From the NCBI GenBank assembly GCA_017476945.1, contig JAFUYV010000061.1, positions 1-11,138 of the forward strand: 11,138 nucleotides of DNA, read 5' to 3'. The position numbers and the translations under genes were made by a program. The DNA comes from Fretibacterium sp. Lineage in GTDB: Bacteria; Synergistota; Synergistia; Synergistales; Aminobacteriaceae. The notes under the pieces are model-generated. The model had not been told where the DNA came from. It ran no database searches and worked only from the letters and a program-made list of their open reading frames with translations. Below are positions 1-5,366 of the stretch, in pieces (positions within the stretch are counted from its first letter, which is position 1; the number at the start of each line of letters is the position of its first letter).

Positions 1-837
<837 letters not shown>

Positions 838-857
838 AAAAAGACCTCTTTCTTAAG

Positions 858-900
858 CAAAATTCTCAAATTTTTCCTATAGCATTTATTGTTTCCGGTA
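858..900 (-). promoter_or_regulatory. Possible sigma70-type promoter for alaS (extended -10 TGcTATAGG with an upstream TTTACC). The match is weak.
   Basis: The minus-strand sequence is GGTTTACCGGAAACAATAAATGCTATAGGAAAAATTTGAGAATTTTGCTTAAGAAAGAGGTCTTTTTGATG. TGn-TATAGG sits about 45 nt upstream of the alaS ATG, but the -35 match is poor. Only 73 nt separate the toxin stop from the alaS start, which leaves no room for a T-box leader. Confidence 0.2.
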
Positions 901-910
901 AACCTCGCGC

Positions 911-1159
911 CTATGGCCCCAGCCAGACGACAAGGACAATCAAGACGTCATCCTTTATCTGGCAGACAAGGCGGTAATCCCCAACGCGATACTTCCAAAG
1001 GCCGGAAAGCGAACCACGGAGCGGCGCACCTTTTGTGCGGGGATTGTCGGATTCACGCAGACGCCGGACATACTGCCTGATACGTTCTCTTGCGGTTCTG
1101 TCCAACCTCAGAAGCGCGTCTTGCGCCTTCTCCTGAAACTCTACTTTCCATCGCGTCAA
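911..1159 (-). CDS. Type II toxin, RelE/ParE (RelE_StbE) family; the C-terminus appears truncated by a +1 frameshift
   Basis: ORF 911..1231 (-) contains (L)[81 protein letters not shown]. This aligns along its whole length with E. coli RelE (YFLDFDERALKEWRKL...KLRGMPDCYKIKLRSSGYRLVYQVIDEKVVVFVISVGKRERSEVY). The RelE fold begins at WKVEF, so I place the start at TTG 1159, although no clear RBS precedes it. The ORF stops after ...VVWLGP. The next frame continues with [10 protein letters not shown], which is the canonical RelE C-terminal tail. Confidence 0.6.
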
Positions 1160-1247
1160 GAGCGTCTGGCGTCCGGCGGCTGGCCCTGCTCTCGAGGGCA
1201 AGGCGATCCGGAATGTCCGGCGCAACCTCAAAGGTCATCTGCGGCAT
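1053..1247 (-). CDS. Putative RHH-type antitoxin (RelB/ParD-like). Its 3' half overlaps the toxin ORF, so the extent is uncertain.
   Basis: A strong RBS AGGAGG sits 7 nt upstream of ATG (complement of 1245-1247). That ATG overlaps the SPFH gene stop as ATGA, which suggests translational coupling. The N-terminus [35 protein letters not shown] fits a ribbon-helix-helix pattern (beta-strand TFEV, then a helix PDIPDRLALESRASRR). The remaining sequence, [27 protein letters not shown], overlaps the toxin frame by 107 nt and looks non-native. Confidence 0.35.
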   Translation of the reverse strand: MPQMTFEVAPDIPDRLALESRASRRTPDALDAMESRVSGEGARRASEVGQNRKRTYQAVCPASA

Positions 1248-2050
1248 CACTGCCCCTCCTTCGTGCCAAACGCCTTGTCGACAAACGGCTTGAGCAGGTC
1301 CATTGGGACGGGGAAGAACGTCGTGGTGTTGCGGTCGCCGGAGATCTCGCGGATGGTCTGGAGGTAGCGGAGCTGGAGCGTGATGGGGGAGACCTCCATT
1401 TGACGCGCGGCCTCGGAGAGCTTGGTGGCGGCCTGGAGCTCGCCCTCGGCGGAGATGATCTTGGCGCGGCGCTCACGTTCGGCCTCGGCCTGGCGGGCCA
1501 TGGCGCGCTTCATCCCCTCCGGCAGCTCCAGCTCCTTCACCTCCACGGCGCTGACCTTGATGCCCCACGGGTCGGTGCGCTCGTCGATAATCTTCTGGAG
1601 CTCCTGGTTGATCTTCTCGCGGGAGGACAGCACCTCGTCCAGCTCCACGGAGCCGACCACGGAGCGCAGCGTCGTCTGGGCAAGCTGGCTGGTCGCGACG
1701 ACATAGTTCTCCACCTCGACGACGGACTTGGAGGGCTCCAGCACTCGGAAGTACACGACGGCGTTGACCTTGATGGCCACGTTGTCCTTGGTGATGACCT
1801 CCTGAACGGGCACGTCCAGCGTCAGGATGCGCAGGTCCACCGTCACGGCCCGGTCAATGATGGGGACGATGAACACAATCCCCGGCCCACGGCTGCCCAC
1901 CAGCCGCCCCAGGCGGAAGAGGACCAGCCGCCGGTACTCCGGCACGATGCGCACGGCCATGGAAAGCACAAACAGCAGGATGAGCCCCGCCACGAACAGG
2001 CTGCCGATCTGGGAGAAGACGGACCCGATGTCGCTGATATCGATAATCAT
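1247..2050 (-). CDS. SPFH domain / band 7 family membrane protein (stomatin/prohibitin-like, QmcA-like)
   Basis: The translation [90 protein letters not shown]...[45 protein letters not shown]... contains an N-terminal TM helix followed by the canonical SPFH core. It is collinear with E. coli QmcA/YbbK. I place the start at ATG (complement of 2048-2050), with AGGGGGAG 8 nt upstream. The ORF-track start at 2110 lacks an RBS and would add 20 non-conserved residues. The stop is TGA at 1247-1249. Confidence 0.9.
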
Positions 2051-2387: not shown

Positions 2388-5366
2388 TTACCATCGCTTC
2401 AACAAGGCCGCGCCGCCCAGCAGGGCCAGCCCAAGAAGGCCGCCGCCCAGCCCCGCGTCGCAGCCGCCGCTGCCATTGTTGCTGGTTGGGCTTTTCACTG
2501 ACGTCTCCTCGACGGTGATGTACTGATTGTACGTCGTCCCACCCTCAAGGTAGGCCGCCACGTTCAGCTCCGACGTTCCGTCGTACTCCTTTCCGTCAAC
2601 GACGTTCCCCTCGGTGTCCAGGAGCACCGCCGGCTCGCCCGTGTCGCTGGCGCCCGTGTCGGTGTCGGTTGCCGCTGTTTTGACGTCGGCCTCATCCAGC
2701 TTGCGGACATAGACGTACGGCTTGTCCCCCTTGTTCAAGCCCTTTGGCTTGCCAAGGCCGATGACGTGGACGCCCTCGTTCACCGCGGTGAACGGCACAA
2801 AGACAACCGCCAGTTTCTCCTTGGCGTTGTTGGTGTTCTTGAGCCCCTTATCGTCCTCCAGGTTCTTCTTGATATCCTGGTAGACGTTTTCAAGCTTCTC
2901 GGTCTCCGCCTCAAAGGGAGGGATGTCCTGGGAGCTCGCGAAGATCACCGGGGCGTCCTTCTGCTCGCTCGTCAGATTCAACCCCACGTAGGCCGGGGCG
3001 CTCTTGAAGTCCTCCGAAGTGGCGTACTTTGTCAACTTTGGAGCGTCGGCCACCGTGGTGACCGTCACGGAGTCGTCATCGCCCAGGTCCAGCGTCGTGC
3101 CCTCCTCCACGGGGTCCTCCGCGGGGGCGTAGACCGTGATGTCCACAGCGTAGAAGTAGGACGGATCCGACGGGTCGTTCACCGCCGCAAGGCGATAGGT
3201 GTTCGAGCCCGACGAGGGGACCGCGAGGCTGGCCGCGGCATTGCCGTCCGAGTCAAAGACCTTCGCCATGTTGGCGGGCGTCACGGCCCACGTTACAGTG
3301 GCGCCTCCCGTCGTCCCGGTGAAGTTGATGGCCGTGGCGGCCTCCTGCGCGCTGACGTCAGTATAAGCCAGGGAGCTCAGCGTCTTGCCGCCCAGGTCCG
3401 CCGAGGCCGCGGGGGCCACCGTGACCTCAAAGGCCTTGGTGTTTGTGCCCTGGGTCAGGGTGATGGTGATGGGCGTGAAAGCCGAGGACGGGATGTACTC
3501 GAAGGCGCCGATGCTGGGGGCGTTGGCGTTGCGCGCCCTGCCAAGCTGGTCCACCGACGGAGCCCCGCTTCCGGCGCCGCCCCTGATGAGGCTGGCGTCA
3601 GCGTTGGTGAGCTTGAAGTACGTCTGCTCGACGTCGTTCACCGTCTCGCTGGCGGACGCGCGGCCGCTCCAGCTCAGGTCCGTCACGCAGTCCGTGCCGG
3701 TGAGGGTGGTCGCCCCGGCTCCGTAAGCGCAGTTCGTCAGAGTCAGCGAGCCGCCATTGTAGGTGTTGACGCAGGGGGTTTTCTCGTTCCAGAGGATCGT
3801 GTTGACCAGGTTCAGCGTGCCGGTGGTGCTGTAGATCTCCGCTCCACCCTCAGCGGCCGTGGCCGTGTTCGACACAAAGGTGCAGTTCACGACCTTCGCC
3901 GTATCCTTGGTGACGTTGTAGCCGCAGACCCCGCCGCCATAGGTGGCCGTGTTGTCCGTGAAGGTGCTGTTCGTCACCGTGGAGGTCAGCTTAGAGTCCC
4001 CGTCGTCACGGAGCATCAGGCCGCCGCCCAGGGTCTCCACGCCGGTCACCGCGGCCGCCTTGTTGCCCGTGAAGGTGCAGTTCTCCACCATCGAGGTCAG
4101 CTTGTCGGCATAGGCACTGTCGAACATCCCCGCGCCGTAGGTCTGCGCGTTGGGGTTTGCGCCGTCCGGGGCTGTGTTCCTGATCTCATTGCCCTCAAAG
4201 CGGCAGTTCGTCACCGTGGAGGTCACGGGGCCGCCCACGGCCTCGTTGCAGATGCCCGCGCCGTTCGTGTCCGCCGTGTTGCCCTTGAACGTGCAGTTCT
4301 CCACCGTCACGGTGAGATCGTTGCCCTTTGTTAACTCAGCGTTCGTCTGGCTGTTGGCGGTGCCGTTCCAAATTCCGCCGCCGGACCCGCCGAAGGCCTT
4401 CGTTCCGTCCTTGGCCGCAACCGCCTTGTTGCCCGTGAACGTGCAGTCCTTGACGGTCACCTTCAGGACGCAGGCCTCCCGGCACCAATTATAGAGGCCG
4501 CCGCCTATGCAGGCCTCGTTGGAGTCGAACGTGCAGCCCGTCACCGTCGTGGTCAGCTTGCCGCCGGAGTGGATGGCGAAGTTGGCCATGCCGCCGCCGT
4601 CGTACCAGTTGCCTTTGTTCCCATCCGCGGTCTTGTTTCCCTTGAACGTGCAGTTCGTCACCGTGATGTCGATCTCGCCGTTCTGCTCCTCTGCGAGAAT
4701 CTTGGTGTCAATGGTGCCGTTGTACATCCCGCCGCCGTTGAAGGCCGTGTTGTCCTCGAAGGTACAGTTCGTCACCGTGGGCTTGAGGACGGCGCTGGTC
4801 GCCGCGCTGTGGGTGTACATCCCGCCGCCGTAGCCGTAGGCGCTGTTGCCCTTGAACGTGCAGTCCGTCACCGCGGGGGTGTAGGCGCCGCTCTGGGTCG
4901 CCGCGATCGCCAGGCCGCCGCCGTTGGCCCACTCCATGTGGCCGTCCGAGACGCTGACGGTGTCCGAGGTGTACTGATTGTTCTCAAAGATACAGCCCGT
5001 GATCGTCGGGCTGGCGTCCTCCACGTAGAGCCCCGCGCCTCCGTAGCCGTTGGCCTTGCTGTTGGCCGTGGAGTTCACGACCCCGCCCGTGATGGTGAGG
5101 TTCTTGATGGTGGCGTCGGCCGTGCACTTCAGGATACGGACGCTGCCGTTGCCCGTCAGCTTGTGGCCGTTGCCGTCAAGGGTGAGCGCACGCGTCACGT
5201 TCAGCGTCTCCGTCACGGTGATGTCCGCCGTCAGGGTGACGGTGCTGTCCGTGCCGGCAAGGGCCGTCTTGAGCGCGTCAAGCGTCCCCACCTCCGCCGC
5301 CCAGGCCGGCGGGGCCAGGAGCGCGCACAGCGCCAGGAGAAAAACCGCAATCCGCTTCGTCTTCAC
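2388..5366 (-). CDS. Large secreted cell-surface protein (992 aa). It has a Sec signal peptide, an N-terminal right-handed parallel beta-helix with polymorphic-membrane-protein (Pmp)-type repeats, Ig-like domains, and a C-terminal Cys-containing sorting signal with a TM helix.
   Basis: The start is GTG 5366, with an AAGGAGG RBS 9 nt upstream. The N-terminus is MKTKRIAVFLLALCALLAPPAWA|AEV. The protein has more than 12 repeats of the form TVTNCTF(K/E/T)GN...GGG(M/L)Y, which match the FxxN and GG[AG][ILMV] Pmp motifs. The beta-helix ends in ...DQLGRARNANAPSIGAFEY. The C-terminus is ...SNNGSGGCDAGLGGGLLGLALLGGAALLKRW*. Codon usage is high-GC throughout. Confidence 0.9.
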   Translation of the reverse strand: MKTKRIAVFLLALCALLAPPAWAAEVGTLDALKTALAGTDSTVTLTADITVTETLNVTRALTLDGNGHKLTGNGSVRILKCTADATIKNLTITGGVVNSTANSKANGYGGAGLYVEDASPTITGCIFENNQYTSDTVSVSDGHMEWANGGGLAIAATQSGAYTPAVTDCTFKGNSAYGYGGGMYTHSAATSAVLKPTVTNCTFEDNTAFNGGGMYNGTIDTKILAEEQNGEIDITVTNCTFKGNKTADGNKGNWYDGGGMANFAIHSGGKLTTTVTGCTFDSNEACIGGGLYNWCREACVLKVTVKDCTFTGNKAVAAKDGTKAFGGSGGGIWNGTANSQTNAELTKGNDLTVTVENCTFKGNTADTNGAGICNEAVGGPVTSTVTNCRFEGNEIRNTAPDGANPNAQTYGAGMFDSAYADKLTSMVENCTFTGNKAAAVTGVETLGGGLMLRDDGDSKLTSTVTNSTFTDNTATYGGGVCGYNVTKDTAKVVNCTFVSNTATAAEGGAEIYSTTGTLNLVNTILWNEKTPCVNTYNGGSLTLTNCAYGAGATTLTGTDCVTDLSWSGRASASETVNDVEQTYFKLTNADASLIRGGAGSGAPSVDQLGRARNANAPSIGAFEYIPSSAFTPITITLTQGTNTKAFEVTVAPAASADLGGKTLSSLAYTDVSAQEAATAINFTGTTGGATVTWAVTPANMAKVFDSDGNAAASLAVPSSGSNTYRLAAVNDPSDPSYFYAVDITVYAPAEDPVEEGTTLDLGDDDSVTVTTVADAPKLTKYATSEDFKSAPAYVGLNLTSEQKDAPVIFASSQDIPPFEAETEKLENVYQDIKKNLEDDKGLKNTNNAKEKLAVVFVPFTAVNEGVHVIGLGKPKGLNKGDKPYVYVRKLDEADVKTAATDTDTGASDTGEPAVLLDTEGNVVDGKEYDGTSELNVAAYLEGGTTYNQYITVEETSVKSPTSNNGSGGCDAGLGGGLLGLALLGGAALLKRW
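5298..5366 (-). other. Sec signal peptide of gene A (23 aa, predicted AWA|AE cleavage site)
   Basis: MKTKR is followed by a hydrophobic core IAVFLLALCALLA and then an AxA site (PPAWA). Confidence 0.55.

Follow-up and report, generated by a model that had tools for sequence, protein, structure and literature searches.

The erosion of toxin-antitoxin (TA) modules, either by pseudogenization of the toxin or by pseudogenization of both genes, is described as frequent in passages of two reports (PMC13617665; PMC7167474). Pseudogenization of TA genes is documented in Photorhabdus (PMC13617665), the decay of ccdO157 in E. coli is the subject of a study cited in one of these reports (PMC7167474), and passages of both also document repeated TA acquisitions at one site (PMC13617665; PMC7167474). 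For the RelE toxin of E. coli, Neubauer et al. (2009) found that the R61A, R81A and Y87A mutations each significantly lower cleavage and that the R81A/Y87F double mutation almost abolishes it, and proposed that Y87 acts as the general base and R81 as the general acid of the reaction (PMC2807027).

The window analysed here is the whole of an 11,138-bp metagenome-assembled genome (MAG) contig from Fretibacterium sp., on which all genes lie on the minus strand (Table 1). Between an intact Band_7/SPFH gene and the 5' part of alaS it holds what is very probably an eroded type II relBE module, surviving as a pseudogene remnant that is fixed in one lineage of rumen Fretibacterium. The identity of the downstream flank is supported by a PF01411 (tRNA-synt_2c) match on the alaS counterpart in L091, a contig of the same lineage described below. 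The intact arrangement is seen at the same site in two relatives, L008 and L009, where the order is Band_7, an 86-aa antitoxin, a 91-aa RelE toxin (P0003) and alaS, and where Band_7 is 94-97% identical to that of the window (97% in L008). The remainder of the window encodes two surface proteins of very large size that are rich in repeats, some of them pectate-lyase-like/polymorphic and others forming leucine-rich-repeat-like blocks. At its C-terminus the larger one has a Synerg-CTERM sorting signal (TIGR02564-type domain TIGR04564; 25.6 bits, cut-off 22.5), and the 992-aa protein has a similar GGC...hydrophobic...KRW tail that scores below threshold.

Table 1. Positions of the features of the 11,138-bp window.
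Feature	Position	Strand	Basis or description
alaS 5' part (alanyl-tRNA synthetase)	2..836	minus	278 codons, intact to the window edge; translation; downstream flank
SD-like sequence of alaS, AAGAAAGAGG	845-854		
TA remnant	886-1247	minus	between Band_7 and alaS
Out-of-frame relic of the toxin C-terminus, HRREVYRKQ*	886..915	minus	CAT AGG CGC GAG GTT TAC CGG AAA CAA TAA
RelE/StbE-family toxin remnant	911..1159	minus	82 codons + TAG; PF05016 and TIGR02385 matches
G4 run of the coding strand (plus CCCC)	917..920	minus	one base more than intact relatives; +1 insertion
Deletion junction, CTTGACGCGATGGA	1147..1160	minus	141-column gap vs L008/L009; 14-mer shared with L010
RelB-like antitoxin remnant, first 30 codons	1158..1247	minus	tblastn vs L008 antitoxin
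Band_7/SPFH gene, 267 aa, intact	1247..2050	minus	upstream flank; PF01145 on orthologs
Surface protein, 992 aa	2388-5366	minus	
Surface protein, >1887 aa	5474-11137	minus	open at the window edge

The last codons of the toxin ORF, read on the minus strand, are GTC GTC TGG CTG GGG CCA TAG, with TAG at 911-913. Deletion of one G from the G4 run gives TGG CTG GGC CAT AGG CGC GAG GTT TAC CGG AAA CAA TAA, the last codon of which lies at 886-888. In a DNA alignment CTGGGGCCATAGG of the window stands against CTTGG-ACACAGG in L008 and L009 and CTTGG-CCACAGG in a further relative, L010, and the run of the window is longer by exactly one base than that of all three. The extra base shifts the frame eight codons before the natural end of the toxin and turns the tail into GP followed by a stop. 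The first-pass annotation had described the VVWLGP terminus with its TAG, and the tail one base out of frame with its TAA, as we find them; the GGCCCC run to which it had pointed is also present, though at 915-920 and not 914-920, position 914 being a T.

The toxin ORF is identical to P0001, recorded as 'MAG: type II toxin-antitoxin system RelE/ParE family toxin [Fretibacterium sp.]', whose protein cluster is a singleton. The NCBI annotation starts it at an internal TTG, which gives a protein reading MTRWKVEF...VVWLGP. An exact-protein look-up with the annotated 82-aa toxin returned no record, and a search of genome contigs and metagenome contigs for the exact toxin-internal 24-mer TTGGGGATTACCGCCTTGTCTGCC returned no matches.

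Even without repair, the ORF scores as a member of the RelE/StbE family with both PF05016 (38.0 bits, curated cut-off 23 bits) and TIGR02385 RelE_StbE (35.7 bits, curated cut-off 27.9 bits), and it covers positions 1-82 of 89 and 1-79 of 88 of the respective profiles. Full coverage is reached only after removal of one G, when the matches extend over positions 1-89 of 89 (45.0 bits) and 1-88 of 88 (39.4 bits); the window ORF as it stands lacks the complete domain with an in-frame G-H/K-R-x-x-(V/I)-Y segment. Such a tail is in frame in 119 of the 120 homologs listed: 113 match G-H-R-x(1-4)-(V/I/L)-(Y/F) near the C-terminus, another six carry GHRRE and vary at the last position, and the WLGP stop occurs only in the window's own P0001. 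Alignment of the repaired protein with 20 homologs shows an invariant G81 and conservation of 90% or more at H82, R83 and Y87. The positional ortholog P0003 encodes in frame exactly the tail that is hidden here, HRREVYRKQ. The window toxin keeps all invariant residues of the family, and the ORF has no internal stops. This correspondence between the hidden tail and the RelE family is far beyond chance, and upholds the earlier proposal that the tail represents the conserved RelE/ParE C-terminal motif.

Consideration of the solved structures gives insight into what the truncated product would lack. The closest of these is PDB 2KHE, an 89-aa toxin-like protein (E = 4e-20). Residues 6-87 of the repaired toxin align to residues 5-87 of E. 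coli RelE (4V7K chain y), with H82-R83 falling on K80-R81, Y87 on Y87 and R63 on R61. In comparison with E. coli RelE (PDB 4V7K/4FXE) the equivalent of R61 (within Y62-R63) is therefore conserved in the window toxin, whereas the equivalents of R81 and Y87 are present only after repair. Because these two lie beyond the premature stop, the encoded product keeps the fold core and the R61 equivalent and has lost two key active-site residues; the mutants of Neubauer et al. bear out the statement of the first-pass annotation that the C-terminal Arg and Tyr are catalytic in E. coli RelE (PMC2807027).

The partner gene has fared worse, and the lesion in it was overlooked in the first-pass annotation. 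By tblastn, the window is 80% identical to the L008 antitoxin (86 aa) over its residues 1-30 and shows no match beyond them, so that of an upstream, overlapping antitoxin of some 79-86 aa only residues 1-30 are left. The ATG of the remnant overlaps the TGA of Band_7 (TGATG), and its frame stays open to 1053, giving a 65-aa ORF (1053..1250) that overlaps the toxin ORF in another frame. The antitoxins of L010 and L008 end with a TAA within the first 4-9 toxin codons, and the window has no nearby stop. The intact antitoxins of L008, L010, L001 and L007 match NF048017 (antitoxin_RelB_like) with 44-55 bits; Pfam assigned no significant family to the antitoxins, whereas this NCBIfam model did match, and a profile search of the window remnant against Pfam and NCBIfam found no family. 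Alignment of the window with L008 and L009 leaves 141 gap columns (47 codons) in frame, and indicates that a 141-bp in-frame deletion has taken the C-terminal two-thirds of the antitoxin.

The deletion also bears on the translation of the toxin. The 14-mer at the junction, CTTGACGCGATGGA, is the sequence that joins the antitoxin end and the toxin start in L010 (...GAG CTT GAC GCG ATG GAG GGT TAA), and its first nine nucleotides are similar to the '(I)LDA' codons further upstream in L008. The toxin-start region reads GGAGAGGGAG...ATGAGCTTGACGCGATGG in L010, GAGGAAGCGTATGAATTGG in L008 and ...CAGACGCTCTTGACGCGATGG in the window. In L010 the start itself is GGAGAGGGAG-N-ATGAGC TTG ACG CGA TGG and in L008 it is GAGGAAGCGT ATG AAT TGG; the window has CAG ACG CTC TTG ACG CGA TGG, with ACGCTC where L010 has ATGAGC. 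Unlike L008 and L010, the window therefore has neither an ATG nor a purine-rich SD in its toxin start region, and the TTG chosen by NCBI falls on a Leu codon inside the L010 toxin gene. A start codon and ribosome-binding site of the toxin's own, placed within the antitoxin 3' end, are thus missing, and only the internal TTG remains. With the ancestral state reconstructed from two relatives, the same deletion probably removed the SD and the ATG of the toxin as well; these relatives are only 53-86% identical to the window in DNA at the junction, and it is from them that we infer where exactly the deletion begins and ends and that the original ATG is lost. At least two lesions have thus inactivated the module, and the frameshift was not necessarily the first.

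Identity to the ortholog is uneven along the module. When positions 911-1247 of the window are compared with L008:844-1351, DNA identity is 92% at the 3' end of Band_7 and 86% at the 5' end of the antitoxin, falls to 53% in the 5' half of the toxin, and is 85% again in its 3' half. We considered that the divergent 5' half of the toxin might reflect pseudogene drift, and rejected this, as all family-invariant residues are kept and the flanks are 85-92% identical. On these grounds the 5' half of the toxin is a different allele, and the central segment, which comprises the antitoxin C-terminus and the toxin N-terminus and forms the interaction interface, looks as though it had been exchanged between alleles and not decayed. 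Compared with the relBE genes of L008 and L009, the window shares the insertion site, the gene order and, with P0003, the C-terminal peptide of the toxin; it differs in this 53% identical 5' half of the toxin, and it alone has the 141-bp deletion and the extra base.

The Band_7 protein, scanned against species-representative genomes, gave 80 loci. At about 35 of these, mostly in rumen Fretibacterium/Synergistaceae MAGs, alaS follows Band_7 after 3-30 nt, and the two closest, L011 and L012, have this empty site with Band_7 94-95% and alaS 93-95% identical to the window. Since Band_7 abuts alaS in so many relatives, the relBE module is an insertion, a cassette acquired in the clade of the window, L008 and L009, intact in the latter two and eroded in the lineage of the window. 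Two other species have a different insert at the same Band_7-alaS junction (L051:3712-4966 and L056:4753-5794), in which inspection of the translated ORFs by eye suggests a Phd/YefM-like antitoxin together with a YoeB/Txe-like toxin and, in addition, a DUF4160-like/DUF2442-like pair. Given these different inserts and the roughly 35 empty gaps, the junction looks like a recurrent hotspot of TA insertion in rumen Fretibacterium. Human oral Fretibacterium (L001-L006) carries an intact relBE pair, 55% identical, with a 76-aa antitoxin and an 87-aa toxin (P0005), between a response-regulator gene and engB-lon-clpX, and we found this pair on 24 or more oral metagenome contigs; oral and rumen Fretibacterium thus hold related cassettes at different sites.

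A search for repeats around the locus gave none that is meaningful. Scans of the Band_7-alaS interval gave no sigma-70-like promoter and no terminator, and no Rfam family was found anywhere in the window. The absence of these elements is consistent with simple read-through into alaS, for which such scans are weak evidence.

A shift of frame at a G4C2 run in a MAG contig, with the hidden tail perfectly preserved, is also what would be expected of a sequencing or assembly error, in which case the true genome would read GGG and the toxin would be intact. An exact look-up of the Band_7 protein retrieved three more contigs of the same lineage: L091 (ENA, SAMN15829993), a 14.6-kb contig 99.96% identical to the window; L092 (a Logan assembly of SRR12529323), 99.95% identical; and L093 (ENA, SAMN15829988), 99.5% identical. 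Over the whole Band_7-alaS interval, GGGG-CCA-TAG and the antitoxin deletion are identical in all three, so that both lesions, the 141-bp deletion and the additional G, are found in four separate assemblies. L091 differs from the window by one SNP at 4512 and one indel near 2100, L092 by a single indel near 2100 as in L091, and L093 by nine SNPs, two of them within the toxin remnant (1082 and 1017); all of these differences lie away from the frameshift site. Because each contig differs from the window elsewhere, none is a copy of its assembly. We note that the three assemblies apparently come from one ruminant metagenome project and that the L092 run could be a shared sample; their independence is judged by these sequence differences and not by provenance, and the comparison is made at the level of assemblies. 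The same run length in three separate, non-identical assemblies leads us to reject the sequencing error that the first-pass annotation had offered as an alternative. In addition, the 10,282 bp of uninterrupted coding sequence in the window contain 142 homopolymer runs of at least 4 nt, with G/C runs of up to 7, and show no frame breaks, which implies a low indel error rate, and an intact toxin beside an antitoxin without its C-terminal two-thirds should be lethal. An error is extremely unlikely in the light of these observations. We conclude from them that the additional G belongs to a genuine allele, one that is fixed in the lineage as sampled, and they sustain the other alternative of the first-pass annotation, a single-base insertion that disarms the toxin of a decaying TA module.

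Two details of these contigs deserve mention. In L093, six of the nine differences fall within the last 40 nt of its contig (L093:1747-1774, window 579-606, in alaS), a cluster that probably reflects misassembly at the contig end or a junction between mixed strains and not true divergence. The indel near 2100 lies upstream of the Band_7 ATG (2050) beside a G6 run, where the window has GC-GGGGGG and L091 and L092 have GCAGGGGGG; no other indel separates the four assemblies, and this one falls outside the coding sequence provided that Band_7 does start at the ATG at 2050.

If the allele is real, the short protein might itself be functional, as a natural variant that does without the C-terminal Arg and Tyr or that has a ribosome-binding or antitoxin-decoy role. 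The ORF passes the family cut-offs, NCBI calls it a toxin, it shows no further visible decay, and the allele is fixed in the sampled lineage. However, its end is unique among the 120 listed homologs and its cluster has no other member, which tells against the short natural form that had been entertained previously; the canonical tail and its correct stop lie just out of frame, as after a recent shift and not as in an evolved terminus; the partner antitoxin has been lost to the deletion, as probably have the native start signals; and R81 and Y87 are jointly needed for catalysis by E. coli RelE (PMC2807027). We consider such a variant very improbable. A prfB-like programmed +1 frameshift, or slippage during transcription, at CUG-GGG-CCA-UAG could in principle still yield a little full-length toxin, since re-pairing of the P-site Gly tRNA from GGG to GGC would give WLGHRREVY and a stop codon stands one codon downstream. 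Yet the site is not conserved: with the tail encoded in frame in 119 of the 120 homologs listed, no relative uses recoding. Moreover, four Gs make a short run for slippage, we see no SD-like stimulator upstream, the toxin start signals are gone, and no antitoxin is left to control the product, so that recoding has next to no probability. There is a small chance that the remnant has been retained for a reason and is not neutral debris. It might serve as an obligatory read-through leader of the essential alaS, or, as a dead RelE stub, it might act as a decoy or anti-addiction element against incoming relBE modules at a hotspot whose antitoxin-C/toxin-N interface segments are exchangeable.

Taken together, these comparisons favor a fixed, eroded relBE remnant over each of the other readings, and suggest how the erosion may have taken place. 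As the junction resembles both the L010 site and the LDA codons of L008, the deletion likely arose between short direct repeats encoding LDA. The toxin would then be neither properly translated nor catalytically competent, and since it would be inert, the loss of the antitoxin would be tolerated. Two orders of events seem viable. If the frameshift came first, the antitoxin would have become dispensable; if the deletion came first, it would have taken the toxin-neutralising region of the antitoxin along with the translation signals of the toxin and so disarmed the module in one safe step, after which the frameshift would have been neutral. The erosion appears to be recent, because all invariant residues of the toxin are kept and the out-of-frame tail and its stop are still perfect. 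Within the lineage, two substitutions are seen in the remnant, both in L093. The remnant is presumably read through within a Band_7-alaS transcript.

We propose that the public record, which names the 82-aa ORF a RelE/ParE toxin, be marked as a pseudogene and left out of counts of active TA systems, because the toxin is disarmed and the antitoxin is gone. The locus offers a clean example of acquisition followed by erosion, with an empty site in most relatives, an intact sister lineage, and a module that has been hit twice here; a single deletion that takes the antitoxin together with the start signals of the toxin would be a safe, one-step way of disarming an addictive module.

In comparison with working RelE/StbE toxins, the window protein is eight residues short and has neither a native ATG and SD nor a functional partner antitoxin, features that mark it, on the evidence of the DNA, as a pseudogene remnant and not as a working member of the family. 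The comparison with the erosion of ccdO157 and of the Photorhabdus modules is closer. In both cases a cassette acquired in a conserved neighbourhood is lost through pseudogenization of the toxin and damage to the antitoxin, and different TA cassettes are found at the same chromosomal site. We see no difference in kind between them: the relBE remnant is the ordinary decay of a selfish cassette, of a known kind and not a new type of toxin, and adds a further instance from the rumen Synergistota.
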